NCBI GenBank assembly: GCA_049305795.1
Contig: JBAQPM010000006.1
Span: 38,902 to 102,901 of the forward strand
Reading direction: 5' to 3'
DNA: 64,000 nucleotides
Source: Minisyncoccia bacterium
GTDB taxonomy: Bacteria; Patescibacteriota; Minisyncoccia; Phycocordibacterales; Phycocordibacteraceae
In this document: one piece after another, positions 42,336-58,481 of the stretch
How the letters are laid out: every line of letters starts with the position of its first letter
How positions within the stretch are numbered: position 1 is the first letter of the stretch
Translations under genes and position numbers: made by a program
Notes under the pieces: model-generated
Seen by the model: the letters and a program-made list of their open reading frames with translations, nothing else
What the model was told of the DNA's origin: nothing
The model's database searches: none

Positions 42336-43292
42336 ATGGAAAACACACCCGTTGCAAAAGCAGAACCGAAAGATTTTTTTCTCTGGGCCGGTGCGCTTAT
42401 AGCACTCTATGCCGCTATCACATCATTCATCACTCTCCTTTTTGAATACATAAATTATTCGTTTCCAGATTCTCTTGCCGGATGGAGCGACCCGTATAGC
42501 GGCAGCATCCGCTTTTCAATGGCAGCACTTATTGTGCTCGCGCCAACTGTGCTCATCCTCATGCGTCTCATTCGAAACAGCATCGCCGCACATCCAGAAA
42601 AGGCAACTGTGTGGGTGCGAAGGTGGGCACTCATGCTCACGCTTTTTGCCGCCGGAGCAACCATTGTTATTGATCTCATTACGCTCCTTTACACATTTCT
42701 CGGGGGAGAAATATCGACCCGATTTTCCCTTAAGGTTGCCGTCATCTTGCTTGTTGCTGTGCTCGTATTCCTTCATTTTCTTGCCGACATAAAAGGCTAT
42801 TGGATACGGGAACGAGCCAAGGCAAACCTGGTTGGAATTGCAGTGTTTGTACTCGCACTTCTTTCGGTGGTTGCTGGTTTCTTTATCGTTGGTAGTCCAA
42901 ACGATATTCGCATGGTTCGTTACGATGAACGCAAGGTTTCTGATCTTCAGGCGATTCAATGGGAGCTCGTTAATTTTTGGCAACAAAAGCAGACTCTTCC
43001 AAAAACTCTCGATGAACTAAAAGATCCACTCAGCTCGTTCATGGTCCCTATGGATATCCAGACAGACGCGCCGTATGTATATGAAGTTGTTGATGCGCGT
43101 TCGTTCAAGCTCTGCGCCACGTTCAATCGCGAAACGCAGGATACCAAAGGACGCGGCGAGTATCCGGCCTATTACGATACATCCCTTGGTTCGGGAGGTA
43201 CCTTTGAAAATTGGAAACATGGGGAAGGGGTAACGTGCTTCACGCGCACCATTGATCCGCAGCGTTATCCTCCTCTTACCAAGGGCATATAA
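42336..43292 (+). CDS. DUF5671-like membrane protein
   Basis: A 6-TM N-terminal half is followed by a soluble C-terminal domain. The architecture is common in Patescibacteria. Confidence 0.5.
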   Translation: MENTPVAKAEPKDFFLWAGALIALYAAITSFITLLFEYINYSFPDSLAGWSDPYSGSIRFSMAALIVLAPTVLILMRLIRNSIAAHPEKATVWVRRWALMLTLFAAGATIVIDLITLLYTFLGGEISTRFSLKVAVILLVAVLVFLHFLADIKGYWIRERAKANLVGIAVFVLALLSVVAGFFIVGSPNDIRMVRYDERKVSDLQAIQWELVNFWQQKQTLPKTLDELKDPLSSFMVPMDIQTDAPYVYEVVDARSFKLCATFNRETQDTKGRGEYPAYYDTSLGSGGTFENWKHGEGVTCFTRTIDPQRYPPLTKGI

Positions 43293-43305
43293 GGGGCCAG
43301 GTTCC

Positions 43306-46203
43306 ATGCGGGGATACGACCATCGGGAGATAGAAAAACGTACCCAGGAAAAATGGGCGGCTTCGGAGCTGTACGTTACCGATCTCTCAGATAAAGAAAA
43401 AGAACCGTACTATCTTTTAACGGAATTTCCGTATCCATCAGGCGACCTTCACATTGGTCACTGGTATGCCTTTGCTATACCTGATATCTTTGCACGCTAT
43501 CTGCGCATGAAAGGGAAAAATGTACTTTTCCCTGTTGGTTTTGATGCCTTCGGTCTTCCTGCTGAAAACGCTGCTTTCAAAAATGGTGCGGATCCGAAAG
43601 AGTGGACGTATGCAAACATGGACCGCATGCGCACCCAGCTTAAAAGCATGGGAACCTCTTTTGATTGGTCTAAAGAAGTTGTTACTGCAGAACCCTCTTA
43701 CTACAAATGGACCCAGTGGCTTTTTGCGAAGCTCTTTGAGCATGGTCTTGCGACGCGAAAAGAAGCTCCAGTGAAATGGTGTCCGAAAGACCAGACGGTG
43801 CTTGCAAACGAACAGGTGATTGATGGGAAGTGTGAACGTTGTGGCACTGAGGTTGAAGAAAAAAGACTTACGCAGTGGTTTATGAAAATCACCGAGTATG
43901 CTGATCGGCTGCTCTCTGATTTAGACGCACTTCCGTGGCGCGAAGACATTAAGGACGCGCAGCGTACGTGGATAGGAAAGTCCGAAGGGGCCAAAATCAA
44001 GTTTAGAGTCAAGGGTCAAGAGTTACCGGAAGCTCATGACTCGCAACTTTCAACTCATGACTTCATTGAAGTGTTTACGACGCGTCCTGAAACTATTTTT
44101 GGTGCAACTTATCTCGTAATTGCACCGGAACACCCACTCGTGGCCCAGCTTGCAGGGAGCGACTTGCCGGGAGCAGTGAAAAATGTAGAAGAGGTACAGA
44201 AATATATTGAAGCAACAAAGAAAAAGACCGAGCGTGAACGATCAGAAAATAAGGAAAAAACAGGAATCAAACTTGAAGGTATGGTTGCGATTAATCCCGC
44301 AACGAAAGAAGAAATCCCAGTGTATGTTGGAGAGTATGTACTCGGTTCATACGGCACGGGCGCTCTCATGGCCGTGCCGGCGCACGATGAGCGAGATTTC
44401 GAATTTGCAAAGAAACATACCATTCCTGTGCGTCATGTAGTTATTCCTCGATTCATTGACGAGAGAAACCCACATGTTCCGGGTAAGGAATTGGTCCCTC
44501 GAAACATCATCATTGGCATTGTGTACGATCCAAAGACGGGAAAATATTTGGGCCTCAAATGGAAGAAACAATCGTGGACGACATTTATTACAGGCGGCAT
44601 CGATGGCGATGAGGATCCCGTGGACGCGGCGCGCCGAGAGATACACGAAGAGACAGGATACAAAAATTTGAAATATATCCGCACACTTGGTGGACCGACA
44701 CAATCGGAATTTTTTGCCGCGCATAAAGACGTAAATCGCATTACCCGAGCGACAAGCATTCTTTTTGAACTTGAAGACGAAGAACGAGACGAGGTGGGGA
44801 TTGAAGAGTTAGAACAACATGAAGTTGCTTGGCTCGACGAGTCTGATGTTACACGAGAAAAAATGCAGCATGCAGAACTCGACATTATTCGATTCCGACT
44901 CTTAAACGAGGAAGCCGATTACTATACGGAACCCGGGATACTCACCGATTCAGGGATTTTTTCAGGTCGTGAAAGCGAGGAGGCAAAATGGGACATTGTC
45001 GAGGCGGTCGGTGGGGAACGCACCACGCAATACCGCATGCGAGACTGGCTTGTGTCGAGACAGCGTTACTGGGGGTGTCCTATTCCAGTTGTCTACGACC
45101 CAGAAGGCAGGGCACATTTGGTGCCTGCAGAGCATCTTCCCTGGCTTCTTCCGACGGACGTGGATTTCACGCCGACAGGAAAATCCCCACTCGCTTCTTC
45201 AAAAGAACTTCACGAGCGCGTTACGAAAATTTTTGGTGAAGGATGGACACCAGAGTATGACACACTCGATACCTTCGTAGATTCCTCCTGGTATTTCTTG
45301 CGTTATCTCGACGCGAAAGACTCGCATGATTTTTCTGATCAGGGGTTGATGAAACAGTGGCTTCCCATAAACCGCTACTCAGGTGGAAGTGAACACACCA
45401 CGATGCATCTTTTGTATGCACGCTTCTTCCACAAAGCACTGTACGATTTGGCACTTGTCCCAACTCCAGAGCCTTTCAATGAACGATTCAATCGTGGACT
45501 CATTATGGGAACTGACGGACAAAAAATGAGCAAGCGATGGGGAAATGTGGTAAATCCCGACGAAATGGTGGAGCGTTATGGCGCGGATGCGGTGCGGGTC
45601 TACCTTGCTTTCATTGGGCCTTATAACGAACCAGGCCACTACCCTTGGAATCTTGAAGGGGTTTCTTCCATGCGGAAGTTTTTGGAGCGTATTGCAGCAC
45701 TTTCTGAAAACCTTTCGGACGACAGTGCTACGGAAAATATATTACGCGCCTTTGCAAAAACCCAAACGAAGTTGGATGCGGATATCGAACGATTCAAACT
45801 CAACACTGCCGTTTCTGCGCTTATGGTGCTCGTGCGCGACCTTGAAGCTCTTTCTAATGTGCCTAAAAGCGCATGCCAAGACCTTCTTCGTTTTGTTGCT
45901 CCTTTCGCACCACATCTTGCAGAACATCTATGGGAACAGACAGGAGGAGGGGGGAGTGTCCACATGGCACCTTGGCCAACGTTTGACCCTTCACTTTTGA
46001 TTGAAGATACTGTTTCGGTGGTTGTGCAGGTAAATGGAAAACGACGTGCAAATATTTCTGTTTCTCCAGATGCTGACGAAGCAGTGGTTGTAAAAGAGGC
46101 TCGTGTGCTCCCTTCTGTGGAGACGGCACTCTCTGGAAAAGAGCCAATTCGGGTGATCTATGTGCCCGGGAAAATACTTAACCTGGTGACAAAGCAGGCT
46201 TAA
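43306..46203 (+). CDS. leuS: leucyl-tRNA synthetase carrying an inserted NUDIX hydrolase domain
   Basis: Class I motifs HIGH (HIGHWY) and KMSKR are present. The CP1 editing region runs TTRPETIFGATYLVIAPEH...GTGALMAVPAHDERDFEF. Before RMRDWLVSRQRYWG lies a ~125-aa insert (nt ~44485-44870) with a perfect Nudix box GGIDGDEDPVDAARREIHEETGY. Confidence 0.9.
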   Translation: MRGYDHREIEKRTQEKWAASELYVTDLSDKEKEPYYLLTEFPYPSGDLHIGHWYAFAIPDIFARYLRMKGKNVLFPVGFDAFGLPAENAAFKNGADPKEWTYANMDRMRTQLKSMGTSFDWSKEVVTAEPSYYKWTQWLFAKLFEHGLATRKEAPVKWCPKDQTVLANEQVIDGKCERCGTEVEEKRLTQWFMKITEYADRLLSDLDALPWREDIKDAQRTWIGKSEGAKIKFRVKGQELPEAHDSQLSTHDFIEVFTTRPETIFGATYLVIAPEHPLVAQLAGSDLPGAVKNVEEVQKYIEATKKKTERERSENKEKTGIKLEGMVAINPATKEEIPVYVGEYVLGSYGTGALMAVPAHDERDFEFAKKHTIPVRHVVIPRFIDERNPHVPGKELVPRNIIIGIVYDPKTGKYLGLKWKKQSWTTFITGGIDGDEDPVDAARREIHEETGYKNLKYIRTLGGPTQSEFFAAHKDVNRITRATSILFELEDEERDEVGIEELEQHEVAWLDESDVTREKMQHAELDIIRFRLLNEEADYYTEPGILTDSGIFSGRESEEAKWDIVEAVGGERTTQYRMRDWLVSRQRYWGCPIPVVYDPEGRAHLVPAEHLPWLLPTDVDFTPTGKSPLASSKELHERVTKIFGEGWTPEYDTLDTFVDSSWYFLRYLDAKDSHDFSDQGLMKQWLPINRYSGGSEHTTMHLLYARFFHKALYDLALVPTPEPFNERFNRGLIMGTDGQKMSKRWGNVVNPDEMVERYGADAVRVYLAFIGPYNEPGHYPWNLEGVSSMRKFLERIAALSENLSDDSATENILRAFAKTQTKLDADIERFKLNTAVSALMVLVRDLEALSNVPKSACQDLLRFVAPFAPHLAEHLWEQTGGGGSVHMAPWPTFDPSLLIEDTVSVVVQVNGKRRANISVSPDADEAVVVKEARVLPSVETALSGKEPIRVIYVPGKILNLVTKQA

Positions 46204-46299: not shown

Positions 46300-47370
46300 A
46301 TGGTAAAAAAATCCAAGACCGCCCCAAAACGAGCAACAAGCACTGCTCCGCTTTCCCTTGATACGGTTACGTCTGTAAAGCGTCTCCTTGCCGAGGTTCC
46401 TGAGCGTGCCCGCGAAGTGCTTATGTATCGTTTTGGTCTTGGAACAAGCGCCGAGCGTCAGACCCTCGAAGAGATTGGGGAACGCTGGGATATTACGCGC
46501 GAGCGCGTTCGTCAAATTGAAAGTGCTGGCCTTGAGGCAGTTCGTGGAAGTAAAACATTTCGCGAACTCGAGCCTATTTTTGAAAACCTTCGCGCGCACA
46601 TTGCAAACCTTGGAGGCATTGTTCCGGAAGATGAACTTCTTGAAAATCTTGCGAAAGATGAAAAAACCCGCAATCGGTATCGATTTCTTTTAGTTGTTGG
46701 AAGCGCTTTTTTCCGTGAACGCGAAACTGATGATTTCTATGCGCGTTGGCACGTAGATCACAAAACTGCAGAAGCAGTGCATGATGCTCTTTCTCGTCTG
46801 TACACATCACTGCCCGACAGCGACGTGCTTCCCGAAGGTGAGCTCATGGACCATTTCCTTGATGAGCTCAAAAGCGTCAACGACGCCTATAAAAATGAGG
46901 AAGTATTGAAGCGTTGGCTTTCTCTTTCAAAAACCATTGCAGCCAACCCGCTTGCCGAGTGGGGACGGGCAAGCTCTCCTACGGTTCGTACAAAAGGTGT
47001 TCGTGATTATGCGTATCTCGTTATAAAACAGCACGGCAAGCCGATGCACTTTTCTGATGTGGCAAAGACCATTAGCGGCATGTTTGCGAAAAAAGCGCAT
47101 GTTGCGACAACGCACAACGAACTCATTAAAGACTCTCGCTTTGTTTTGGTTGGTCGTGGACTCTACGCGCTTGCAGAATGGGGATATCAGCCAGGCGTTG
47201 TGCGCGACGTGATTCGTGATGTTCTTAAGAAAAAAGGTTCGCTCACCAAAGAACAGGTCATGGATGAAGTAAAAAAGGTCCGTTACGTAAAAGACAATAC
47301 TATTCTTGTAAACCTCAACGACGCACGCAACTTCAAGCGCGCAAAAGACGGTACCTACGCTGCAGTGTAA
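46300..47370 (+). CDS. sigma-70 region-4 HTH plus HARE-HTH-like domain protein
   Basis: N-terminal region 4 reads RQTLEEIGERWDITRERVRQIESAGLEAVR. The C-terminal segment KPMHFSDVAKTISGMF...DSRFVLVGRGLYALAEWGY resembles HARE-HTH. Confidence 0.55.
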   Translation: MVKKSKTAPKRATSTAPLSLDTVTSVKRLLAEVPERAREVLMYRFGLGTSAERQTLEEIGERWDITRERVRQIESAGLEAVRGSKTFRELEPIFENLRAHIANLGGIVPEDELLENLAKDEKTRNRYRFLLVVGSAFFRERETDDFYARWHVDHKTAEAVHDALSRLYTSLPDSDVLPEGELMDHFLDELKSVNDAYKNEEVLKRWLSLSKTIAANPLAEWGRASSPTVRTKGVRDYAYLVIKQHGKPMHFSDVAKTISGMFAKKAHVATTHNELIKDSRFVLVGRGLYALAEWGYQPGVVRDVIRDVLKKKGSLTKEQVMDEVKKVRYVKDNTILVNLNDARNFKRAKDGTYAAV

Positions 47371-47456: not shown

Positions 47457-48854
47457 ATGTCTTCAGGAGGTGGTCACGGGGGAGGCGGTTTGCCATTTTT
47501 GGGTTCAATTACGGGCTTCACTCACGCACTGCACGCTAAGCACGGTGTGCATTTGCCGATGTGGCCCTTTCCCACATTGTTTGTCGTTCAAAATTTTCTC
47601 TTTCTCCTCTTTGCTCCTACGCAAACATTTCAAAATTACGAATTTCTCCTTTTTCTTTCTCCCCTATGGCTCCCGATCCTGCTTATCCGTTTTATGTGGG
47701 AGAGGCGGAAGGACGTAATGCAATATGCCTATAGTTTTTCTCAAGACAAGGTGCTTCTTGAAATCCGTATTCCACGGGAAGTACGCAAAACACCTCTTGC
47801 CATGCAGTCCTTTTTCACAAGCATACATTTGAGCCCCGGCGAAGGTACCTGGTACAAAAAACATATTCTGGGCCGCACCCGCCCCACGTGGTCTTTTGAA
47901 TTGGTTTCAATTGAAGGACAAGTGCATTTTTGCGTGTGGACTCGCGAATCTTTTCGTCGAGCTATAGAAACCTATTTGTATGCTGAATATCCGGGCATAG
48001 AGGTTATTGAAGTACCTGATTTTTTACGGACCTTTGAATTCGATCAGCACGAAAAACATCGCGCCTGGTCGTGTGAATATGCCCTTAATCAACCCGACCC
48101 GGTTCCTATTAAATCATTTGTTGATTTTGGTATTGATAAACCAGGGCTTAAACCTGAGGAGGTTGCTGACCCGTTGTCCCACGTTATTGAATTTCTCGGC
48201 TCTCTTGGTAAGGGTGAGCGTGCGTGGATTCAAATCATTCTTCAAACTCACAAAGGAGGAAAATATAACCGCAAAAATGCAAAAGGAGGGGTATATACCT
48301 GGAAGGATGAAGCAGACGAGATGATTAAAGAAATAAAAGACTCCACGGTTTCTGAAACCCAGTATGTCGACGCTGTCACGGGGAAGCTTGTAAAAAGCAA
48401 AGGATTTCCAAACCCAACCAAAGGCCAGGTTGAATATATGGGTGAAATCGGACGAAATGCGTATATGCCAGGTTTTGATGTCGGTATCCGCTCGCTCTAT
48501 ATTGCAGAGAAAGATCGGTATTTCGGAACTATCGGCGCGCATCTTTCACAAATATTCAGAGTTTTTGCGGGAAGCAATGTGCTTGGACCGCATCCATCGG
48601 TAGGTTCTGAAAAATTTAGCGAGTTCCCCTGGGAGGATCCAAGTGGTCATCACTACCAACACGAAATGCAAAAGATGTTTGATTTTGCAAAGCGTCGCGT
48701 TTATTTCCACTACCCATATAAGGGTCCAAACATGGTCATGAGCACAGAATCGCTCGCAACTCTCTACCACATACCTTCTTCGACAACCACGACGCCGGGT
48801 CTTCCACGCATCCAATCAACAACATCAGAAGCTCCACCTAACCTACCGATATGA
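47457..48854 (+). CDS. hypothetical membrane-associated protein (465 aa)
   Basis: A Gly-rich N-terminus and two hydrophobic segments are followed by a large soluble domain. No family is recognised. Confidence 0.5.
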   Translation: MSSGGGHGGGGLPFLGSITGFTHALHAKHGVHLPMWPFPTLFVVQNFLFLLFAPTQTFQNYEFLLFLSPLWLPILLIRFMWERRKDVMQYAYSFSQDKVLLEIRIPREVRKTPLAMQSFFTSIHLSPGEGTWYKKHILGRTRPTWSFELVSIEGQVHFCVWTRESFRRAIETYLYAEYPGIEVIEVPDFLRTFEFDQHEKHRAWSCEYALNQPDPVPIKSFVDFGIDKPGLKPEEVADPLSHVIEFLGSLGKGERAWIQIILQTHKGGKYNRKNAKGGVYTWKDEADEMIKEIKDSTVSETQYVDAVTGKLVKSKGFPNPTKGQVEYMGEIGRNAYMPGFDVGIRSLYIAEKDRYFGTIGAHLSQIFRVFAGSNVLGPHPSVGSEKFSEFPWEDPSGHHYQHEMQKMFDFAKRRVYFHYPYKGPNMVMSTESLATLYHIPSSTTTTPGLPRIQSTTSEAPPNLPI

Positions 48855-49867
48855 GGTTACTGTTGCTAACGAAAGACGCGCTTCTCGCTGCGTGGGTAGC
48901 GATAACATTTAATGTTGCTCGTCTGCGTGTGTTGTATGCTTCGGGATTTCTTGCCGGTCTTCTTTTGCTCGGCATTGTTGGATATATCGTGTATGTTCCT
49001 GTCGCTGGTTTTCGATTGGGAACACGTATCACGATTGAAGAGGGAGCATCTATTTCAGATATTGCCCAGAAACTTGCGGACGAACAGGTCATCCGTTCTC
49101 CTTTTTTATTTGAAGCTGGTATCCGAATCCTTTCTGCAGCAAAAACACCGCAGGCCGGTACCTATGTATTTGCAGAGCCGGCAGGTCTCGCATCAGTTAC
49201 CCATCGTGTTCTGTTTGGTATCTATGGCATCACGCCGACGCGGGTTGTATTTCCCGAAGGTTCAACGGTGCGTGAAATGGGAGAAATTCTTTCCGAGCGC
49301 ATTCCTGGATTTGACGTTGTAGCGTTTACTAAGGAAGCGGCGCCTTTTGAAGGATATGTATATCCGGACACGTATTTCGTATATCCAGATGTAACGCCGC
49401 ATGAAATTCTAACCATGTCCTATGAAAATTTCATGACACATCTTTCGTCTGTTGATGAAAAGATACAGGCGTTTGGTCGTCCCACTTCGGAAGTGTTGGT
49501 GATGGCGTCTCTTCTTGAAAAGGAAGCCCGGACGCTTGAAGAGAGACGTATGATTGCTGGCATTTTATGGAATCGTATTGAAGAGGATATGCCGCTTCAA
49601 GTTGATGCAGTGTTTGGATATATCAATAATCGTGATACATACAGCCCGCTCCTTTCGGATCTTGCCATAGATTCTCCGTACAACACGTATAAAAACAAGG
49701 GACTTCCTCCGGGGCCCATCACGAATCCAAGTATTGAATCCATCCTTGCAGCTATAACTCCCGCAACCACCACTGATTTGTATTACCTCACCGGGAATGA
49801 TGGGAATATGCACTATGCGCAAACATTTGCACAGCATAAGAAAAATCGTTCACTCTATCTAGATTAG
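48851..49867 (+). CDS. mltG: endolytic murein transglycosylase MltG (YceG-like)
   Basis: An N-terminal TM is followed by a YceG core with GILWNRI and LQVDAVFGY. Confidence 0.85.
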   Translation: MRLLLLTKDALLAAWVAITFNVARLRVLYASGFLAGLLLLGIVGYIVYVPVAGFRLGTRITIEEGASISDIAQKLADEQVIRSPFLFEAGIRILSAAKTPQAGTYVFAEPAGLASVTHRVLFGIYGITPTRVVFPEGSTVREMGEILSERIPGFDVVAFTKEAAPFEGYVYPDTYFVYPDVTPHEILTMSYENFMTHLSSVDEKIQAFGRPTSEVLVMASLLEKEARTLEERRMIAGILWNRIEEDMPLQVDAVFGYINNRDTYSPLLSDLAIDSPYNTYKNKGLPPGPITNPSIESILAAITPATTTDLYYLTGNDGNMHYAQTFAQHKKNRSLYLD

Positions 49868-49921
49868 GTAAGCGGTCGTATCTTTGAGAAGAATACGACC
49901 GCTCGTTTGGTTTCTTGTCTT

Positions 49922-50269
49922 TCATGGGTGTCTCTCCATGTTGATGTTGAGGCGGGTGTCTCGATGTTCTCGTTCTCGCCAGAACGACACACTTTGGCCA
50001 ATCCAAAGCTCTTTTTGCGTGGGATCTCGTATCAGCAACCATTCCTCCTCATTAGTAGAGGAAACTTGAAGGATTGCCTCATGAGTTCCTGGCTCAAGTT
50101 TGGTTGGACGTCGTATGTCCGGATCATCTGGATCTCGCAGCACGATGATCAGTGTTTTCGTGACCACCAGCAGTGCTCGTCCCTGCACTTCATGAAAAAC
50201 TTCTTTATTCAAAGAACTCACCTCCTTTCGGTGATTTTGGAAGTCTCCTCTATTGAGATAGAATCGCAT
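49922..50269 (-). CDS. possible small hypothetical protein divergent from mnmA
   Basis: The reading frame is protein-like from the internal Met. There is no clear RBS. A competing + strand ORF at 49907-50290 is less protein-like. Confidence 0.3.
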   Translation of the reverse strand: MRFYLNRGDFQNHRKEVSSLNKEVFHEVQGRALLVVTKTLIIVLRDPDDPDIRRPTKLEPGTHEAILQVSSTNEEEWLLIRDPTQKELWIGQSVSFWREREHRDTRLNINMERHP

Positions 50270-51332
50270 GATGAAAGAGTTTGTCAATAAACGGGTGTTT
50301 GTAGGACTCTCTGGGGGAGTTGATTCTGCCGTTTCTGCCGCGCTTCTCAAAGAGGCAGGCGCAAAGGTAACCGGCGTGTTTATAAAAGGCTGGTATCCGC
50401 CCCAATTGCCCTGCACCTGGAGGGCAGACAGGCGAGACGCCATGCGTGTTGCAGCGCACCTTCAGATACCGTTTCTCACGCTTGATGCAAGCAAAGAATA
50501 CAAAACGGCAGTCATCGACTATCTCATTCGTGAATATGCTCTTGGTCGCACGCCAAACCCGGACATCATGTGTAATCGTGAGGTTAAATTTGGCGCTTTT
50601 TACAGGTATGCGCGGGTGCAGAGTGCTGATTTTATCGCAACTGGTCACTATGCGCGGGTGGAAAGGGGAGTTGCGGGAGAGACAAATCTTTTACGCGGTA
50701 CCGATCCTTCAAAAGACCAGAGCTATTTTTTGTGGGCTATTTCCAAAGAAGTGTTGCCACACCTTATTTTTCCTGTAGGAAATCTTTTGAAAGAAGAGGT
50801 ACGCAAATATGCAAAACGATTCACGCTTCCTGTCGCTACGAAAAAAGATAGTCAAGGTATTTGTTTTCTTGGAGACATATCCATTGAAGATTTTCTTAAA
50901 AGCGAAATTGGTCTTACTTCTGGAATTGCGTATGACGAGTCGGGAAACCAGATAGGAACGCATGGTGGTGTAGTCGCGTATACACTCGGAGAACGGGTTT
51001 CACTTATCGATGCTCCTGCCGGACCCTGGTATGTTCTTGCAAAACGCATTCGGGAAAATGAACTTGTGGTATCACACCTGCCGTATGCCACCTCACAAGG
51101 AGTTGGGCGTGATATCAAGCTTGCCGCTACCAATTGGTTTGTACGTCCAGTGCCGCAAGAAATATATCAAGCTCAATATCGCTATCATGGACTAGAGATA
51201 GCGGGAACGTATGATACTGAGAATTCAGTTTTCAAACCTAGCGAGTCTCCGAAAGACACCCTTTCGCCTGGTCAGTCCCTGGTGCTGTATAGGGGGAACT
51301 GCGTCGTCGGAGGTGGTAGTATAGAGGCATAA
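50268..51332 (+). CDS. mnmA: tRNA-specific 2-thiouridylase
   Basis: The PP-loop is GLSGGVDSAV, with catalytic Cys context PCTW and CFLG. Confidence 0.9.
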   Translation: MMKEFVNKRVFVGLSGGVDSAVSAALLKEAGAKVTGVFIKGWYPPQLPCTWRADRRDAMRVAAHLQIPFLTLDASKEYKTAVIDYLIREYALGRTPNPDIMCNREVKFGAFYRYARVQSADFIATGHYARVERGVAGETNLLRGTDPSKDQSYFLWAISKEVLPHLIFPVGNLLKEEVRKYAKRFTLPVATKKDSQGICFLGDISIEDFLKSEIGLTSGIAYDESGNQIGTHGGVVAYTLGERVSLIDAPAGPWYVLAKRIRENELVVSHLPYATSQGVGRDIKLAATNWFVRPVPQEIYQAQYRYHGLEIAGTYDTENSVFKPSESPKDTLSPGQSLVLYRGNCVVGGGSIEA

Positions 51333-51733
51333 TGAGGGTTTGGATTGCAGCCGGAGTCTTTATAGTGGTGGGTATTGGAGCTTTTTTCGTTTTTGTATTT
51401 CGCACGGGCGAAGATGTTCCCTTAGAGAAAGATACTGAAATTTCAGCGCCCGTCATGACCGACCTTACGTTCACCCATACCTATAAAACAGGGACGCATA
51501 CCATACGGGGTGCTGTTACCGTGCCTACGCGCTGTATCACGGTCGCTGCAAAAGCCATTGTGGACGCCTCTTCCACTCCGGAAAATATACGTCTGGATCT
51601 TACGGCACCTTCTGAAACTGGTGTGTGCCTTCGGTTGCCCACGAATGCATCATTTTCAGTGACGGCCCAGGCGAACGAGGATGCAACACTCAGTATTTTT
51701 GAAAATGGTGTTCTTGCCACGAGCACTCCGTAG
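51332..51733 (+). CDS. hypothetical membrane-anchored protein (133 aa)
   Basis: It has an N-terminal TM helix. The start overlaps the mnmA stop. Confidence 0.45.
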   Translation: MRVWIAAGVFIVVGIGAFFVFVFRTGEDVPLEKDTEISAPVMTDLTFTHTYKTGTHTIRGAVTVPTRCITVAAKAIVDASSTPENIRLDLTAPSETGVCLRLPTNASFSVTAQANEDATLSIFENGVLATSTP

Positions 51734-51735
51734 AT

Positions 51736-52605
51736 ATGGAAACCACCGTTGTATCTCCAGCTAAAAATATTTCAATAATTAAAGCCGATGGGGCAGTAGA
51801 GCGTTTTGAGCCTGAGAAACTTGCGGCCTCGCTCCGCAGGGCCGGGGCAGGAATGCACACCGCAGCTCGTATTGCCGGTACCATCACGGCGACGGCTCCG
51901 AAAGAAGTAAATTCCCACGAAGTATATCGAAAAGCGTTTGCCATGTTGCGCCGAGAGGCGCGGCCTGCGGCCGCACGCTATGCGCTTCGACGCGCGCTTC
52001 TTGAATTCGGTCCCTCGGGACATCCTTTCGAAGATTTTGTTGCGCAACTCTTTAGTTCAGAAGGTTGGAAGGTCGAGTGGCGCAAAATCATTAAAGGAAG
52101 GTGTGTTTCTCACGAAGTCGATGTGTACGCGACGCGAGGAAATGAAACCATGGCTGCCGAACTTAAATATCATAATGACGCTTTTTACAAAACCGATGTA
52201 AAAGTTGCCCTCTATGTGAAGGCGCGTTTTGACGATATCTGGAACTGCGATCCTCGTGTAAAAACATGCCCTATGGATCGCGGATTTCTTATCACCAATA
52301 CGAAATTCACGAGCCAGGCCATCGACTATGGAACCTGCGCGGGCATTGAACTTGTTGGCTGGAACTATCCTGAACAAGGAAATCTGTATGACCGCATCAT
52401 TGCCTCCGGACTCTATCCCATCACAACGCTGACGATGCTTAAAAAAGCCGAAAAAAAACTGCTCATCAACAATGGCATTGTTACCTCCTCAATGCTTCGC
52501 GACAACCGGGAAGCACTCCGCTCTATCGGTGTTCCCTCAGAGCGAATTGGAGGTATACTCGGAGAGATTGAATCACTGCGCTCACCCATGTCCTATGCCA
52601 CCTAA
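51736..52605 (+). CDS. ATP-cone domain fused to Mrr-cat restriction-endonuclease-like domain
   Basis: An N-terminal ATP-cone-like segment IIKADGAVERFEPEKLAASLRRAG is followed by an Mrr_cat-like segment FEDFVAQLFSSEGWKVEWRK...HEVDVYATRGNE...KYH. Confidence 0.65.
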   Translation: METTVVSPAKNISIIKADGAVERFEPEKLAASLRRAGAGMHTAARIAGTITATAPKEVNSHEVYRKAFAMLRREARPAAARYALRRALLEFGPSGHPFEDFVAQLFSSEGWKVEWRKIIKGRCVSHEVDVYATRGNETMAAELKYHNDAFYKTDVKVALYVKARFDDIWNCDPRVKTCPMDRGFLITNTKFTSQAIDYGTCAGIELVGWNYPEQGNLYDRIIASGLYPITTLTMLKKAEKKLLINNGIVTSSMLRDNREALRSIGVPSERIGGILGEIESLRSPMSYAT

Positions 52606-53086
52606 CATTGTCCAACAACACACCCAAACAAAAAAAGTTCTCATTGGTTTTGCCCTGAGCCTCATTCTCCTTATGGGCGCGGTGGTGTGGCTCGTGCTTT
52701 CTCAGTCAAAACCAGAAGGAAACATACCTTCGACCGAGCAGCGTGAAGCGGCACAGCAATACATTGTTTCGGTTCAAGACCAAAAGGCCGGCACTACGGT
52801 GGAGGTCGAATCAATCAGCATAGCTGCGACTGCCAACCTATGGGTTGCCGTAGCGGAAACAGACAGTGAAGAAATCACTCGTGTCCTTGGTGCTGCACGA
52901 GTAGTTAGCGGAGCAGGCAAGATTGAAATAAATCTTCTTCGCGCGACAATACCAAACACTTCGTATGCCGTTGTGCTGTACCGAGACGACGGCGACCAGA
53001 TCTTTGACCTATATAAAGACAGTGTCTATATAGATTTTGAAAGTGGCAAACGAGTAGTAGTGCCTTTCAAAACACTTGCCGAATAA
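52595..53086 (+). CDS. hypothetical membrane-anchored protein
   Basis: An internal start at 52595 overlaps the upstream stop. There is one N-terminal TM helix. Confidence 0.45.
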   Translation: MPPNIVQQHTQTKKVLIGFALSLILLMGAVVWLVLSQSKPEGNIPSTEQREAAQQYIVSVQDQKAGTTVEVESISIAATANLWVAVAETDSEEITRVLGAARVVSGAGKIEINLLRATIPNTSYAVVLYRDDGDQIFDLYKDSVYIDFESGKRVVVPFKTLAE

Positions 53087-53091
53087 CCAGC

Positions 53092-53874
53092 ATGGCTTTC
53101 GGCGGATATAAATTAAAGTGGGAGAAAGGGCGTTTTGACCCTTCTTCTAAAGAGCCCTACACACTGAGCCGTTCAAAAGTAGAACGATACTTGGAATGTC
53201 CGCGCTGTTTTTGGCTTGAAGCCCGCTATGGCATTGGAAGGCCTGATACGCCACCTTTTACGCTTAACAACGCCGTTGATGAGTTGTTCAAAAAGGAATT
53301 TGATATACATCGCGCAAAAGGCGAACCGCATCCACTCATGAAAACGTACGGCATAGATGCTGTGCCTTTCAAACACGAGAAAATGGAAGAATGGCGTGAC
53401 GCGTTCAAACGCGGTATTAAGTATCACCACACACCAACGAATCTTATTTTTCGTGGCGGGATTGATGACGTGTGGCAGGGAAAGAATGGGGAGCTATATA
53501 TTGTTGATTACAAAGCCACTGCCGGAAAAGACGAAGTAACGCTCGACGATGAGTGGAAAGATGCCTATAAGCGTCAAATTGAAATGTATCAGTGGCTCTT
53601 TCGCCATAATGATTTTACGGTTTCTCCTACCGCCTATTTCGTATACGCCAATGGCGACAATGATAAAAAAGCTTTCGATGGGAAACTCGAATTTGATATC
53701 ATTATCCTGCCCTATGAAGGAGATGATTCCTGGGTGGAAGGTACCCTTACGGATCTCAAGACATGTTTGATGGATGATGAAATTCCAAAACCTGGATCTC
53801 GTTGTGAATACTGCCCCTATCGTGAGCACGCCGGCAAAACGTTGCTTTCACTCGTAAAAGCAAAGAAAAAATAA
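53092..53874 (+). CDS. PD-(D/E)XK nuclease, Cas4/RecB-like with four Cys
   Basis: An N-terminal CPRC is followed by the core GGIDDVW...YIVDYKAT and a C-terminal CEYCP. This is a Cas4-like Fe-S architecture. Confidence 0.7.
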   Translation: MAFGGYKLKWEKGRFDPSSKEPYTLSRSKVERYLECPRCFWLEARYGIGRPDTPPFTLNNAVDELFKKEFDIHRAKGEPHPLMKTYGIDAVPFKHEKMEEWRDAFKRGIKYHHTPTNLIFRGGIDDVWQGKNGELYIVDYKATAGKDEVTLDDEWKDAYKRQIEMYQWLFRHNDFTVSPTAYFVYANGDNDKKAFDGKLEFDIIILPYEGDDSWVEGTLTDLKTCLMDDEIPKPGSRCEYCPYREHAGKTLLSLVKAKKK

Positions 53875-53875
53875 C

Positions 53876-54544
53876 ATGAACGTCGTGATAGACGACTCTT
53901 GGAGAGAGAAGTTGCAAGAAGAGTTTGAGAAGCCATATTTTGCAGACCTTACTTCTTTTGTGAAAAAGGAATATCTCAGTGAAAAAATTTATCCGGCACC
54001 TAAACATATTTTTCGCGCCTTTGATTTGTGTCCTTTCGAGAAAGTGAAAGTGGTCATTTTGGGCCAAGACCCCTATCACGGAGCGGGCCAAGCAAATGGT
54101 CTTTCTTTTGCAGTGGACAACGGAGTCACAACACCTCCTTCTCTGCAAAATATTTTCAAGGAGATAGAAAGTGATTTTGGGAAACCGCTTGTGCACAAAA
54201 CCGGAGATCTCTCGAGGTGGGCAACACAGGGTGTGCTGTTATTAAATGCCACGCTCACGGTGAAAGCGCATGCAGCCGGCTCGCATCAGGGCCGTGGGTG
54301 GGAATTGTTTACAGACGCCGCTGTGCGCGCCCTTTCAGAAGGGCGCGAGCACCTGGTCTTTATGCTGTGGGGTAATTATGCAAAGGCAAAAGGTGCGCAT
54401 ATTGACCGCCTAAAACATCTCGTGCTTGAAGCTCCGCACCCCTCACCATTTTCAGCGGCAAACGGTTTTTTCGGCTGCAAGCATTTCAGCAAAGCAAACG
54501 ACTACTTAGTTGCACACAATCAAACTCCAATTGATTGGCTCTAA
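53876..54544 (+). CDS. ung: uracil-DNA glycosylase (family 1)
   Basis: Motifs GQDPYH and HPSPFS are present. Confidence 0.9.
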   Translation: MNVVIDDSWREKLQEEFEKPYFADLTSFVKKEYLSEKIYPAPKHIFRAFDLCPFEKVKVVILGQDPYHGAGQANGLSFAVDNGVTTPPSLQNIFKEIESDFGKPLVHKTGDLSRWATQGVLLLNATLTVKAHAAGSHQGRGWELFTDAAVRALSEGREHLVFMLWGNYAKAKGAHIDRLKHLVLEAPHPSPFSAANGFFGCKHFSKANDYLVAHNQTPIDWL

Positions 54545-54545
54545 A

Positions 54546-56513
54546 TTACCAAATTTTTGCACGTGCGGTGGAAGTTCGGTACAACTTGTCACCCGTAGTA
54601 ACACCAAACGTTTCGTAAAACTCGTCTACGTTTGAGGCGGGACCATTGATGCGGAATGTGCCGGGCGAGTGGGGGTCGTTCAAAGCATGCATTTTTTCAA
54701 ATTCTGGACGACAGATCTCACGTTCGAAAACAGCAAAGGCAACAAAGAATCGTTCGAGGGGAGAAAACCCGTCAATGGTCACACTCGGATGTTTTACAAG
54801 GTGATTTTTATAGGCATCAAGGGCAATGACAAGACCGCCAAGATCAGCAACATTTTCTCCAAGAGTGAGTTTTCCATTTACCGGCACTCCGTCTGCAACT
54901 TTGTATTGATTAAATTGCATAACGAGCTGTTTCGTTTTTGCTTCGAAACGTTTTTTATCTTCCGATGTCCACCATGTTTTTACGTTGCCCTTGGCATCAT
55001 ATTTTGCCCCCTGATCATCAAACCCATGAGTCATTTCGTGTCCAATAACCGTACCTATACAGCCATAGTTGTGCGCATCGTCAGCAGAAAGGTCAAAGAA
55101 TGGTAGCTGCAAGATGGCAGCAGGGAAGACGATTTCATTCAAGCTTGCTGAAAAATAAGCGTTTACCGTTTGTGGATACATAAACCACTCCTTTCGATCG
55201 ACGGGTTTTTCAAGCTTTTTCATTTCACGACGATGTTCGTAAAGGGCAGTACGCATAACATTGCCAACATACTCGTCTGCTTTGATGACAAGACCCTTAT
55301 ACGATTTCCAACGATCGGGATAGCCGATCTTGTGATTCATGGTGTGCAATTTTGCAATAGCTTTTTTCTTTGTCGGAGCACTCATCCAGTCAAGGTTTTT
55401 AATACGCTGTTCGTACGCAACAAACAAATCTTCTACGAGAGCGTTCATGCGTTTTTTTGCTTCAGGACCAAAATGTTTTTCAACGTAGAGCTTGCCAAGC
55501 ATTTCGCCCAGGTTTCCATTCACGGTGCTCAGGGTGCGTCGCCACAAGGGTTTTAGTGCTTTTGCGCCTGAAAGCACAGTTCCATAAAATGCAAAACTCT
55601 GTTTTACAAAGGCAGGGGAGAGAAATCCTGCAAAATCATTCACCAAATGCCATTCTAGATAAGTTTTCCAGTCAGAAAGCGAAATAGCATCAACCATGAT
55701 GGCAATTTCTTTGAAAAAGTCTGGCTGCATGACAATAAGGTCGCCGGCCTTTTTTGCGTCAATGTTTAGAAGATAGGTTGCCCAGTCAATCTGTGGCGCG
55801 ATCTTCTTTAATTTCGCACTGTTCATTTTGTGATAGGTCTTATCAATGTCACGCCGATCTTCTTTATTCATCCATGCTTTTGCAATGCGTGTTTCAACAC
55901 CTACGATAATTTTCACTTTTTGTTTTGTTTCTTGTGTGGCATATCCTGTAAGGCGAAACATCGCCTCGACGTGTTTTACATAGGCATCGTAAACGCGTTT
56001 CGATTCAGCATCATTTTTTAAATAGTAGTCACGATCAGGCATGCCGAGGCCATCTTGGAAAAGATGTAGGGCATACCGGTCGCTGTTTTTTGCGTCTTGA
56101 TCTATGCCTGCTCCCCAGAGCACACCGACACCGAGGCGGTGTAGGGTAGTAATCGTTGCGAGAAGATCTTTTTTCGATTCAATTTTTTCTATCTCCTGCC
56201 GTAACGTTTGTAGAGGTTTTATGCCAAGAGCGCGGCGGCGTTTTTCATCCATGCCGGAACGAAAGAAATCTCCAATCAATTGTTTAGGACTTCCTGCGGT
56301 ATATTTTTTCGTACTAAGCAGGCCTTTCACGATAGTGTGGAGTTGTTTTTCGGTCTTAACCCGAAGCATGACAAAACTTCCCCACCAAGATTCTGTCTTT
56401 GGAATGCTATTTCTTTGCATCCAGCCCCCATTTGCATATTGGTAGAAATCGTCCTGCGGACGTACTTTTGTATTGAGGTCTTTAGTCTTAAATCCAAGGA
56501 CTTTTTGTTTCAT
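54546..56513 (-). CDS. M13-family zinc metalloendopeptidase (PepO/neprilysin-like)
   Basis: Motifs HEMTHGFD and ENVADLGG are present in a 655-aa protein. Confidence 0.9.
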   Translation of the reverse strand: MKQKVLGFKTKDLNTKVRPQDDFYQYANGGWMQRNSIPKTESWWGSFVMLRVKTEKQLHTIVKGLLSTKKYTAGSPKQLIGDFFRSGMDEKRRRALGIKPLQTLRQEIEKIESKKDLLATITTLHRLGVGVLWGAGIDQDAKNSDRYALHLFQDGLGMPDRDYYLKNDAESKRVYDAYVKHVEAMFRLTGYATQETKQKVKIIVGVETRIAKAWMNKEDRRDIDKTYHKMNSAKLKKIAPQIDWATYLLNIDAKKAGDLIVMQPDFFKEIAIMVDAISLSDWKTYLEWHLVNDFAGFLSPAFVKQSFAFYGTVLSGAKALKPLWRRTLSTVNGNLGEMLGKLYVEKHFGPEAKKRMNALVEDLFVAYEQRIKNLDWMSAPTKKKAIAKLHTMNHKIGYPDRWKSYKGLVIKADEYVGNVMRTALYEHRREMKKLEKPVDRKEWFMYPQTVNAYFSASLNEIVFPAAILQLPFFDLSADDAHNYGCIGTVIGHEMTHGFDDQGAKYDAKGNVKTWWTSEDKKRFEAKTKQLVMQFNQYKVADGVPVNGKLTLGENVADLGGLVIALDAYKNHLVKHPSVTIDGFSPLERFFVAFAVFEREICRPEFEKMHALNDPHSPGTFRINGPASNVDEFYETFGVTTGDKLYRTSTARAKIW

Positions 56514-56558
56514 GCTGGGATTATAGTACCCGCGTAGTGTTCATGCTATCTTTTTCGT

Positions 56559-58481
56559 ATGACGGTAAACGAGGTACGCAGCCGCTATCTGGCCTTTTTT
56601 GAAAAACGGGAACACGCCATTATCCCCTCGGCTCCCATCGTTCCTGAAAACGACCCTACAACGCTTTTTACCTCAAGCGGCATGCAGCCCTTGGTGCCGT
56701 ATCTTCTGGGTGCACCACATCCCAAGGGAACCCGTCTGGCGGACTCACAAATTTCATTTCGAGCGGGGGATATTGAAGAAGTGGGAGATAATCGGCACAC
56801 TACTTTTTTTGAAATGCTCGGTAACTGGTCGCTTGGAGATTACTTCAAGAAAGAACAGCTTCCATGGATTTTTGAATTCCTCACCAGCAAAGAAGAAGGT
56901 CTTGGTTTTGATCCTGTAAAACTCTATGTAACCGTTTTTGATGGAGACGTTGAGGCAGGTATGGATCTTGATACCGAGGCAGTCGAAATATGGAAAGAAC
57001 TTTTTGCACAAAAAGGAATGGACGCTGCGCTAGTGCGCATTGGTACCGAAGAAGAGGGATATGAAAAGGGAATGCAGGGAGGACGCATCTTTTCCTACGG
57101 TTCAAAGAAAAACTGGTGGAGTCGTGCGGGTGTTCCCAAAAACATGCCACCCGGCGAGCCAGGAGGTCCCGACTCTGAAATTTTTTATGATTTTGAAACA
57201 CCCCATGACCTGAAATGGGGCAAGGAATGCCACGTGAACTGCGACTGCGGACGTTTTGTTGAGATTTCTAACTCAGTGTTCATGCAGTTCGTGAAAAACG
57301 CAGACGGTTCCTTCAGCGAGCTTCCAAATAAAAACGTGGATTTTGGAGGTGGGCTTGAGCGACTCGCCGCAGCAACTCTTGACAGTTCAGATGTTTTTAC
57401 CATCGATGTGTTTGCTGCACCGAGAGTAATTCTTGAAACTCGTTCTGGAAAAACATATGGAGAGAATGAACAAATAACACGTTCGTTTCGTATCATTCTT
57501 GACCACATCCGGGCGGCCACCTTTATGCTGGCTTCTGGTATTCGGCCGCAAAACAGTGAGCAGGGGTACGTGCTTCGTCGCCTTGTTCGTCGCGCCATAC
57601 GCGAAGCAGATCGTCTTGCTATTACAGATGCCATTCTTCCAGAAATTGCAGCGGCGTATGGGGAATCGTATGCCGGTGCCTATCCTTTTATACGAGAATC
57701 AGCAGAAAATATCCGCACCGAACTTTCCCAAGAAGAAGAGCGTTTTCGAAAAACCCTCACCCAAGGACTTCGTGAGTTTGAAAAATTTGCTGCTACCAAC
57801 GAAATTTCAGCAGATGCGGCGTTCACTCTTTTCACTACCTACGGCTTTCCTATTGAAATGACCGAAGAATTAGCAAAAGAACGTAACATTTCGATAGATC
57901 AAGCTTCTGTTGAAACTCGCCTGAAAGAACACCAAGCACAGTCACGTGCCGGAGCGGAACAAAAGTTTACCGGCGGCCTTGCCGACCACGCAGAACAGAC
58001 GGTCCGTTATCATACGGCTCATCATATTCTTCTCAAGGCATTGCAAATGGTATTGGGTCCTGAAGTGCACCAGCGGGGAAGTAACATCACGAGCGAGCGT
58101 TTGCGTATTGATTTTTCTTACGGACAGAAAATGACACCGGAACAAATTGCTGCAGTGGAAAAAATAGTAAATGAGAAAATCATTGAAGAGCTTCCCGTGT
58201 CTCGCACAGTTATGCCAAAAGAAGAAGCGGAGAAGTTTGGCGCGGAGCACGAATTTGGGGTGAAATACCCCGACATGGTTTCGGTATATTCCGTTGGTCC
58301 AAAAAATGCCACTCCCGAAAATCCAAATATAGACCAGGCTTTTTCAATCGAATTTTGTGGCGGCCCGCATGTTTCTAACACGCGCGAACTTGGCGAGGGA
58401 GGAAAGAAATTCAAGATTCTAAAAGAAGAAGCTTCCTCTGCCGGGGTGCGTCGTATCAAAGCAGTCTTGGTAGTTTCTTAA
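56559..58481 (+). CDS. alaS: alanyl-tRNA synthetase, short form lacking the C-Ala domain
   Basis: It has the AlaRS catalytic N-terminus and an editing domain with HTAHH and CGGPH. The protein ends at 640 aa. Confidence 0.9.
   Translation: MTVNEVRSRYLAFFEKREHAIIPSAPIVPENDPTTLFTSSGMQPLVPYLLGAPHPKGTRLADSQISFRAGDIEEVGDNRHTTFFEMLGNWSLGDYFKKEQLPWIFEFLTSKEEGLGFDPVKLYVTVFDGDVEAGMDLDTEAVEIWKELFAQKGMDAALVRIGTEEEGYEKGMQGGRIFSYGSKKNWWSRAGVPKNMPPGEPGGPDSEIFYDFETPHDLKWGKECHVNCDCGRFVEISNSVFMQFVKNADGSFSELPNKNVDFGGGLERLAAATLDSSDVFTIDVFAAPRVILETRSGKTYGENEQITRSFRIILDHIRAATFMLASGIRPQNSEQGYVLRRLVRRAIREADRLAITDAILPEIAAAYGESYAGAYPFIRESAENIRTELSQEEERFRKTLTQGLREFEKFAATNEISADAAFTLFTTYGFPIEMTEELAKERNISIDQASVETRLKEHQAQSRAGAEQKFTGGLADHAEQTVRYHTAHHILLKALQMVLGPEVHQRGSNITSERLRIDFSYGQKMTPEQIAAVEKIVNEKIIEELPVSRTVMPKEEAEKFGAEHEFGVKYPDMVSVYSVGPKNATPENPNIDQAFSIEFCGGPHVSNTRELGEGGKKFKILKEEASSAGVRRIKAVLVVS

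Follow-up and report, generated by a model that had tools for sequence, protein, structure and literature searches.

An ATP-cone/Mrr-type nuclease fusion in a lineage-conserved gene run of Patescibacteria, probably a housekeeping gene rather than part of a defence island

Do four consecutive genes in the genome of a Minisyncoccia bacterium (Patescibacteria, also called the candidate phyla radiation, CPR) form a defence module, or do they merely belong to the core gene order of the lineage? The genes lie at 51736-54544 of a 64-kb window, by which we mean the whole stretch of DNA that was analysed and to which all coordinates refer unless a locus or accession is named. From the sequence alone, an earlier note had described them as an ATP-cone fused to an Mrr-type nuclease (here ConeMrr), a small membrane protein (TM163), a Cas4-like nuclease and a uracil-DNA glycosylase (UDG, here Ung), and had read the set as a compact, nucleotide-sensing defence or DNA-quality island. 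All four open reading frames (ORFs) were found on the + strand where that note had placed them, and Ung was indeed the last. Our analysis indicates that ConeMrr is probably a housekeeping, nucleotide-gated nuclease located in a lineage-conserved gene run and not in a mobile or variable defence island. The four-gene set is made up of further members of known families in a conserved housekeeping block and is not a distinct system. The genes and the domains of ConeMrr were as follows.

51736..52605, + strand: ConeMrr, 289 aa, ATP-cone, Mrr-type PD-(D/E)XK nuclease and AF1548-like C-terminal domain
51769..52005, + strand: ATP-cone domain of ConeMrr, about residues 12-90 (sub-threshold PF03477, Foldseek, conservation)
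52015..52365, + strand: Mrr-like PD-(D/E)XK domain of ConeMrr, about residues 94-210 (Mrr_cat, homology to 1Y88)
52378..52581, + strand: AF1548-like C-terminal helical domain of ConeMrr, helix-hairpin-helix (HhH) type, about residues 215-282 (1Y88 alignment, PF22357)
52595..53086, + strand: TM163, small protein with a membrane anchor, 163 aa (start most likely at ATG 52595)
53092..53874, + strand: Cas4-like / RecB-family PD-(D/E)XK nuclease, solo, 260 aa (PDDEXK_1)
53876..54544, + strand: ung, family-1 UDG, 222 aa, one nt after the Cas4-like stop

Domain architecture and conserved residues of ConeMrr

Mrr_cat (PF04471) matched residues 94-207 of ConeMrr with 25.8 bits, above the cut-off of 21 bits; the ATP-cone was the only other Pfam match, and no NCBIfam model covers the protein. 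Residues 101-279 were aligned by phmmer with AF1548 of Archaeoglobus fulgidus (PDB 1Y88) at E=1.4e-25, and the family profile gave 6.9e-48. This homology includes a third, C-terminal HhH-like domain which was absent from the earlier account; PF22357 (AF1548-like_C) is precomputed on many ConeMrr homologues. An AlphaFold2 model was built on 49 homologues (predicted local distance difference test, pLDDT, 93.9; predicted TM-score, pTM, 0.88), and helices were observed at 217-281 with pLDDT >95. When this model was searched against the PDB with Foldseek, the best match was again 1Y88 (E=2e-14, 32% identity, TM-score 0.75 on the target), and the next matches were to catalytic domains, namely of MspJI and AspBHI and of the ligand-activated nucleases Can2, Card1 and Cdn1.

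The N-terminal domain was superposed by Foldseek on the ATP-cones of NrdR and ribonucleotide reductase (RNR) with a root-mean-square deviation of 2-3 Å over about 80-87 columns (19-23% identity), and because of this placement the assignment as an ATP-cone is sound despite the sub-threshold Pfam score. A precomputed PF03477 match is also present on most ConeMrr homologues, and profile matches of the cone to the cone region of NrdR were marginal (E ~0.8-0.95). Together, the model and the alignments revealed the four-helix/beta-hairpin cone fold with its N-terminal K-x-x-G...F...K-[IL] signature. Conservation was scored on one alignment of close homologues (A1) and two of distant ones (A2, A4); the cone residues K16, G19, F24, K28, L29, Y64 and R81-Y82 were invariant, and so was the GPxGxPFE linker across close and distant homologues. 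In the nuclease domain, the catalytic residues E127, D129, E142 and K144 of the (E)xD...ExK motif were invariant in 49 diverse homologues, as was TNT187-189 within a TNTKF motif at 187-191. The earlier claim that an ATP-cone is fused to Mrr_cat was thus borne out, and, since the cone and the catalytic residues are both invariant, a nuclease gated by adenine nucleotides would be a reasonable reading of the sequence.

The catalytic residues of ConeMrr correspond to D38, E51 and K53 of AF1548, which had been predicted as catalytic in the Global Ocean Sampling (GOS) paper (PMC1821046). AF1548 is a structural-genomics entry, and this paper was the only relevant literature mention of it that we found; its comment predicts a restriction endonuclease.

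Comparison with known systems placed ConeMrr more precisely. The nuclease and C-terminal helical domains of AF1548 are homologous to those of ConeMrr, but only about 20 residues precede the nuclease domain in AF1548, which hence has no ATP-cone. With NrdR and RNR, ConeMrr shares the sensor domain, in which the K..G..E.F...K[LI] signature is conserved, and like NrdR it joins this cone to a nucleic-acid-binding module; however, the effector of NrdR is a Zn-ribbon, whereas that of ConeMrr is a catalytically intact PD-(D/E)XK nuclease together with an HhH domain. RNR genes were not seen linked to ConeMrr in any locus. In its catalytic fold and motifs ConeMrr conforms to the Mrr_cat type, as do Mrr, MspJI and AspBHI, but the hallmarks of type IV restriction are missing: no reader domain for modified DNA was found (neither Mrr_N nor SRA, by Pfam and Foldseek), and the distribution is fixed and syntenic, not sporadic or island-borne. 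In Can2, Card1 and Cdn1 the logic is analogous, with a sensor of a nucleotide ligand fused to a PD-(D/E)XK nuclease; there, however, the sensor is a CARF domain for cyclic oligoadenylate, whereas ConeMrr carries an ATP-cone, presumably for ATP or dATP, and has no CRISPR type III context. By fold and motif, ConeMrr falls within the AF1548/Mrr_cat family and outside both the NrdR and the Can2/Card1 families.

Four cysteines of ConeMrr (C123, C171, C178 and C201; window 52104-52338) were invariant in the Paceibacteria-type clade and may form a site for metal binding or redox chemistry. Throughout the family, and in AF1548 too, C123 and C201 are kept, whereas C171 and C178 are clade-specific and lie in a clade-specific insertion, where the pLDDT of the model dips to ~78.

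Linkage, evolutionary rate and genomic contexts of ConeMrr

The linkage of the genes was determined in two sets of Patescibacteria. For the close set, a scan of one genome per GTDB species found a close ConeMrr in 213 species, from which the best 80 loci were used; the distant set consisted of divergent Patescibacteria loci with a ConeMrr 38-46% identical. Contexts outside the CPR were taken from 20 loci without the backbone of MnmA and alanyl-tRNA synthetase (AlaRS).

Of the close loci, 80/80 have MnmA upstream of ConeMrr, as do 37/37 of the distant loci with the backbone; AlaRS was found near ConeMrr in 65/80 and 25/30, respectively. Neither was seen near ConeMrr in the non-CPR loci. The Cas4-like gene was near ConeMrr in 74/80 close loci, 23/35 distant loci and 0/15 non-CPR loci, and the UDG gene in 73/80, 5/30 and 0/15. 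The whole block of about 16 kb, from leucyl-tRNA synthetase (LeuRS) to the genes after AlaRS, was syntenic throughout the 80 close species. Linkage among close relatives therefore does not discriminate, because the housekeeping genes of this block are linked equally well or better. In divergent Patescibacteria the backbone persists while the inserted genes decay one by one with distance: ConeMrr was found without a Cas4-like gene in three close loci (L004, L006 and L028) and in 12/35 distant loci, and in some divergent genomes it is followed straight by AlaRS or is accompanied by MgtC and EamA genes instead. The claim of a compact defence island was not upheld, as the genes sit in a core-gene array that is syntenic lineage-wide and in which MnmA is linked to ConeMrr more tightly than the Cas4-like gene or UDG. 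The linkage of the four genes in relatives holds for the Cas4-like gene and UDG in close species; it fails for TM163 (17/80), for UDG at a distance and for both enzymes outside the CPR.

The sequence of ConeMrr has changed at the pace of its housekeeping neighbours. Its median identity to the window protein over the 80 species was 64%, and the medians for the same set were 72% for the sigma factor, 70% for AlaRS, 70% for Ung, 60% for MnmA, 59% for PepO, 57% for the Cas4-like protein, 46% for MltG and 44% for DUF8128. Few genes of the block evolve more slowly than ConeMrr, which behaves as a core gene in Patescibacteria. A protein 100% identical to it is on record from a metagenome-assembled genome of Minisyncoccia (phylum Minisyncoccota). 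A single-query search returned 3804 clusters of the family at 90% identity; at 50% identity the family comprises 1036 clusters (E<1e-3) or 397 clusters (E<1e-30). It spans bacteria and archaea, and almost all of its members are about 280 aa long and share one three-domain layout and one set of motifs. Their database labels are 'restriction endonuclease', 'ATPase' and 'ATP cone domain-containing protein' only, and our literature search found neither a paper on a fusion of an ATP-cone to an Mrr-type nuclease nor a functional study of this family.

ConeMrr was nearly absent from collections of mobile elements. By tblastn it was detected in 0/50,697 phage genomes and on 2/72,556 plasmids; a scan of IMG/VR with family patterns matched 26 stretches, none of which was confirmed as a relative, and ConeMrr, TM133 (the small protein encoded just upstream) and TM163 had no PHROG match. 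The hidden Markov models (HMMs) of PADLOC-DB v2 were run on the six genes from mnmA to ung. No system-specific match was obtained, and none at all to the two small membrane proteins or UDG; the check for defence systems gave only the generic Cas4 models on the Cas4-like protein and a weak match of the ZorD nuclease domain on ConeMrr (E=0.004). With its conservation, its fixed position and its near-absence from mobile collections, ConeMrr has the traits of a housekeeping gene and not those of a restriction or abortive-infection gene.

Outside the CPR, ConeMrr recurred at the head of a cluster with a hydrolase of the metallo-beta-lactamase (MBL) fold and beta-CASP (RMMBL) type, a member of the thymidine/AMP-phosphorylase (TP) family and ribose-phosphate pyrophosphokinase (Prs). 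Among the 20 contexts, some of them related to one another, the beta-CASP/MBL hydrolase was present in 8/20 and the AMP/thymidine-phosphorylase family in 7/20, and P-type cation ATPases adjoined ConeMrr in about 10/20, sometimes with overlapping stop and start. The loci carrying the cluster were the following.

NZ_CP021236 1972-6597 (L170): plasmid of Pontibacter actiniarum (Bacteroidota)
NZ_LK031773 6001-10608 (L171): plasmid of Criblamydia sequanensis (Chlamydiota)
L172 (7001-14245), L149, L154, L134, L144, L162 and the P0379 contig: cluster whole or partial
L083 2266-6867: further locus listed with the cluster

At the Criblamydia locus, a P-type ATPase, a phosphoketolase and a glycogen phosphorylase lie upstream and an acetate kinase downstream. 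The cluster thus spans Bacteroidota and Chlamydiota, and a Nitrososphaera locus adds an archaeal link to AMP phosphorylase: here ConeMrr comes directly after e2b2, form III RuBisCO and AMP phosphorylase, which we take to be the archaeal AMP/pentose-bisphosphate pathway. MgtC was found downstream of ConeMrr in L134 and also in the CPR locus L085. Homologues of the beta-CASP, TP-family, Prs, RuBisCO and e2b2 genes are all absent from the 64-kb window itself. The trio of MBL, Prs and TP-family genes has been reported as induced under microoxia in Bradyrhizobium diazoefficiens (PMC6515984). Outside the CPR, the ConeMrr cluster looks like a nucleotide-catabolism or energy-stress module.

One non-CPR metagenome contig (L088 6001-9551) showed a different arrangement, in which genes for a LexA-like S24 peptidase and for a Y-family (IMS) polymerase come after ConeMrr, that is, a cassette of the SOS-mutagenesis type.

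Proposed role of ConeMrr and competing explanations

For the housekeeping nuclease, the following mechanism can be proposed. If it works as in RNR and NrdR, the ATP-cone of ConeMrr would bind ATP or dATP and change the oligomeric state of the protein. Since PD-(D/E)XK nucleases commonly act as dimers, such a change would gate cleavage, switching the predicted Mg2+-dependent nuclease on or off, and the HhH domain may hold the nucleic acid by non-specific contacts with its backbone. Because the family associates with nucleotide-catabolic genes, cleavage would track the adenylate or dNTP status of the cell, and the role would be in nucleic-acid turnover, nucleotide recycling or repair rather than in restriction. 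In CPR bacteria, ConeMrr may cooperate with the adjoining repair nucleases, for example with incision licensed when dNTPs are available, or may simply be syntenic with them. We tentatively propose that the family as a whole consists of adenylate- or dATP-gated nucleases which couple the breakdown of nucleic acid to nucleotide and energy status, in a nucleotide-catabolic cluster of free-living bacteria and archaea and, in the CPR, as a slowly evolving core gene beside repair nucleases. If this were true, the cone of ConeMrr would be the first one known that governs a nuclease and not the reduction of ribonucleotides.

The value of the locus lies in ConeMrr, a large and strongly conserved family that joins the allosteric ATP/dATP sensor of RNR to an intact nuclease. 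Its substrate and its switching nucleotide would clarify how Patescibacteria, which are salvage-dependent and have a minimal metabolism, balance DNA maintenance against nucleotide supply, and the cluster of ConeMrr, beta-CASP hydrolase, AMP phosphorylase and PRPP synthetase offers a concrete hypothesis that can be tested.

Several points weigh against the housekeeping, nucleotide-gated account. On the side of the sensor, the ATP-cone profile (PF03477) scored 23.2 bits on ConeMrr (residues 13-83), just under the cut-off of 25.8 bits, and this protein has Ala where the canonical K-R-D-G motif has Arg; E. coli NrdR likewise lacks this Arg in the HMMER alignment. Nucleotide binding is predicted, as are the direction in which it would regulate the enzyme and the nature of the substrate (DNA or RNA). 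On the side of gene context, the non-CPR loci are partly interrelated, so that their counts overstate independence. The junction of ConeMrr with the Cas4-like gene is tight, often overlapping, and kept in 66% of distant Patescibacteria; such persistence may reflect a real functional coupling, which an account by synteny for the most part underweights. Finally, ConeMrr might conceivably be a conserved, chromosomally fixed gene of innate immunity in organisms with few other defences.

The Cas4-like protein matched PDDEXK_1 with 51.4 bits, above the 22-bit cut-off, and fell below the Cas4 cut-offs (PF01930, 16.6 vs 22.7; TIGR00372, 40.9 vs 65), while the generic Cas4 HMMs of PADLOC matched at 5e-11. 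RecB-family motifs were identified (D126, D139-x-K141 and Q162...Y166), and four cysteines, C36, C39, C238 and C241, were invariant in 40 homologues (alignment A3) in the arrangement CxxC...CxxC as putative Fe-S ligands. The canonical pattern of Cas4 is C...CxxCx5C, so that the spacing is 2+2 here vs 1+3 there. The AlphaFold2 model (pLDDT 91.2) was matched by Foldseek to the AdnAB nuclease, RecE, Cas4 SSO0001 and Pcal_0546, MGME1, lambda exonuclease, ACE1 and EXO5. The earlier description as a four-Cys, PD-(D/E)XK, Cas4-like nuclease therefore stands for the cysteines and the motifs, which are invariant, but not for the scores against the Cas4 families.

A repeat scan confirmed that no CRISPR-like array is present in the 64-kb window, and the neighbours of the Cas4-like gene in the 80 relatives are ConeMrr, Ung and an Ogt-like gene, which makes it 'solo' by the definition of Hudaiberdiev et al. 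2017 (PMC5704561). In that paper, solo Cas4 is over-represented in CPR bacteria without CRISPR-Cas, its role there is left as 'defense or repair', and pfam12705 Cas4-like proteins are treated as a separate branch. The window protein fits this branch and is a solo nuclease of the kind already described in CPR bacteria: it likewise stands alone, has four conserved cysteines and comes from a small-genome bacterium without CRISPR. From Cas4 proper it differs by its scores under the curated cut-offs, its better fit to PDDEXK_1 and its lack of CRISPR association.

Directly 3' of the Cas4-like gene, a stand-alone Ogt/MGMT-like gene of 87 aa (DNA_binding_1, PCHR acceptor motif) was found in 21/80 close and 27/34 distant loci, for example at L029 9373-9633, L007 8043-8303 and L089 8344-8619. 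Its junction with the Cas4-like gene often overlaps, and this pairing is tighter than that with UDG, for which most gaps in close species were variable (250-1500 nt). No Ogt-like homologue exists in the 64-kb window; the lineage of the window has lost the gene, so Ung abuts the Cas4-like gene. Ung itself is a full-length equivalog of family-1 UDG in which nothing unusual was detected (NF003589, 320.2 bits vs 223; TIGR00628, 279.5 vs 185.75; Pfam UDG, 59.7 bits). Because a resection nuclease adjoins two base-damage enzymes in relatives, a role of the Cas4-like protein in DNA repair rather than in immunity is favoured; its pairing with Ogt-like and Ung suggests a function in DNA-damage processing, and it may resect ends or flaps after the damaged base has been removed. 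The pairing with Ogt-like, which a keyword search of PMC5704561 did not find, is a lead on the function of solo Cas4 in CPR bacteria. The earlier notion of a DNA-quality island can accordingly be kept only loosely, for the downstream half (Cas4-like, Ogt-like and often Ung), and not as a compact island.

Identities of Cas4-like orthologues (L001-L080) look bimodal, ~49-55% and ~57-79%, whereas those of ConeMrr in the same genomes are unimodal at 60-74%. The bimodality may reflect two sub-lineages or the replacement of a paralogue in the same slot.

The best of the alternatives is a dedicated DNA-repair operon, in which ConeMrr would serve as an endonuclease specific for damage or structure, its cone licensing incision only when dATP or dNTPs suffice for repair synthesis, with the Cas4-like exonuclease for resection, Ogt for alkyl reversal and Ung for uracil excision. 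ConeMrr and the Cas4-like gene are neighbours in 74/80 close and 23/35 distant loci, and in about 51/74 close species they are directly adjacent with no gene between (<=34 nt); the Ogt-like gene follows as described, Ung is nearby in 73/80, and the single non-CPR locus with the S24 peptidase and Y-family polymerase would fit as well. CPR bacteria rely on nucleotide salvage, and a gating of excision by dNTP supply would be plausible given this dependence. However, ConeMrr is kept without the Cas4-like gene in the three close and 12/35 distant loci mentioned above; outside the CPR it lies near neither Cas4-like nor UDG (0/15) but beside nucleotide-catabolic and cation-ATPase genes; and the functionally unrelated MnmA is its more constant neighbour. 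Apparent ORF fusions of ConeMrr with the Cas4-like gene (L011 and L034) were also considered and rejected as artefacts, as a stop codon separates the genes in both. We regard a dedicated repair operon as unlikely. Within the housekeeping reading, a real co-function of ConeMrr with Cas4-like, Ogt and Ung is possible, and we hold it only tentatively.

A second alternative is that functionally unrelated housekeeping genes have come to lie together by position in a compact, slowly rearranging genome. Coding sequence makes up about 95% of the window, 85% of its genes share one strand, and 19/54 (35%) of its same-strand junctions are <=10 nt; the array also holds genes for tRNA modification, aminoacyl-tRNA synthesis, a peptidase and ribosomal proteins, and, as phylogenetic distance grows, the genes drop out of linkage one after another. 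Against this, the five junctions from mnmA (50268) to ung (54544) measure -1, +2, -11, +5 and +1 nt, and five such ultra-tight junctions in succession exceed what the window average would give (a chance of roughly 0.35^5); the pairing of Cas4-like with Ogt-like and the frequent presence of Ung also look like a real repair cluster. Positional coincidence is improbable, more so than the repair operon. On account of these tight junctions and of a 400-nt gap with a promoter-like site before mnmA, the unit is taken to comprise six genes starting at mnmA and not only the four ORFs: mnmA, tm133, coneMrr, tm163, cas4-like and ung are probably a co-transcribed run.

The weakest alternative, a nucleotide-sensing anti-phage module in which the cone senses infection-induced shifts in dNTP or ATP and unleashes the Mrr-type nuclease for abortive infection or restriction, with the membrane protein, the Cas4-like nuclease and UDG as accessories, could draw on the Mrr/type-IV catalytic domain with its likeness to MspJI, AspBHI and the defence nucleases Can2, Card1 and Cdn1, on the weak ZorD match and on the 'defense or repair' wording in PMC5704561, but it is very unlikely in view of the fixed position in a core array in 80/80 species at a housekeeping substitution rate, the lack of an Mrr_N-type reader in Pfam and of a methyltransferase among the annotated neighbours, the lack of a system-level PADLOC match, the absence from phage and viral collections and near-absence from plasmids, the poor conservation of TM163 and of distant UDG linkage (5/30), the metabolic rather than defence-island contexts outside the CPR, and flanks of LeuRS, sigma factor, MltG, MnmA, AlaRS and ribosomal proteins in place of mobile or defence genes. 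As a lead to a defence system the locus is weak, and we advise against listing it as a new immune module.

The gene run and its neighbours

The order of genes on the window is YchF, DUF5671, LeuRS, sigma70_r4 + HARE-HTH, DUF8128, MltG, MnmA, TM133, ConeMrr, TM163, Cas4-like and Ung, after which a convergent PepO-type peptidase, AlaRS, a Ppx/GppA-like protein, S13, S11, S4 and RpoA follow (Pfam/NCBIfam annotation). GC content is flat over the window, and no anomaly of composition was seen. The neighbouring features were located as below.

43252-46203, + strand: LeuRS with a NUDIX insert (Pfam NUDIX, 46 bits, residues 438-542)
46300-47370: sigma70 region-4 + HARE-HTH protein, part of the conserved backbone
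47457-48854: DUF8128 protein, part of the conserved backbone
50268..51332, + strand: mnmA, tRNA 2-thiouridylase (Pfam tRNA_Me_trans, 244 bits), head of the six-gene run
51332..51733, + strand: TM133, small N-terminally anchored protein, 133 aa (hydrophobic residues 3-23, read from the sequence)
54546..56513, - strand: convergent M13/PepO-type peptidase (NCBIfam PepO, E=2.4e-103, below the equivalog cut-off), downstream end of the co-directional run

Between MltG and mnmA, a stretch of 400 nt (49868-50267) contains only short overlapping ORFs on both strands and has no Rfam match; in some relatives MltG and mnmA are almost contiguous. A sigma-70-like promoter match at 50237-50264, just 5' of mnmA, was the sole promoter-like site that fits the start of an operon. 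When the region 49800-56700 was scanned, promoter matches did not rise above the shuffled expectation and no convincing internal terminator was found. Over the whole window, Rfam returned only three tRNAs, all distant from the ConeMrr region.

The two small membrane proteins appear in a minority of the relatives. mnmA and TM133 meet in TAATG, a 1-nt overlap, and a homologue of TM133 was present in 28/80 close loci. The start of TM163 at ATG 52595 overlaps the stop of ConeMrr (TAA, 52603-52605) by 11 nt, just as the overlapping stop and start had been noticed before; the protein has a single N-terminal hydrophobic helix (about residues 14-36). Neither TM133 nor TM163 had a family match in Pfam, NCBIfam, PADLOC or PHROG. 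By tblastn, a homologue of TM163 was detected in only 17/80 relatives, and the slot that it occupies was filled in about 22/74, so its earlier casting as a module member is not maintained. TM133 and TM163 are lineage-specific fillers, and TM163 is not a conserved partner of ConeMrr. A possible paralogy between the two was rejected by comparison. At the downstream end, a PepO-type peptidase was found at the same position in 47/80 close loci.

Upstream, every Patescibacteria locus that was examined has the sigma70_r4 + HARE-HTH and DUF8128 genes ahead of MltG and MnmA. In LeuRS, the NUDIX domain is inserted between the editing domain and the remaining catalytic core, and the same architecture was found in the distant relative L089. 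The sole tandem array of the window, six copies of a 21-nt repeat at 31050-31209, is not CRISPR-like; in one reading frame it would encode an acidic heptad of the ...EDVDEIQ... type.

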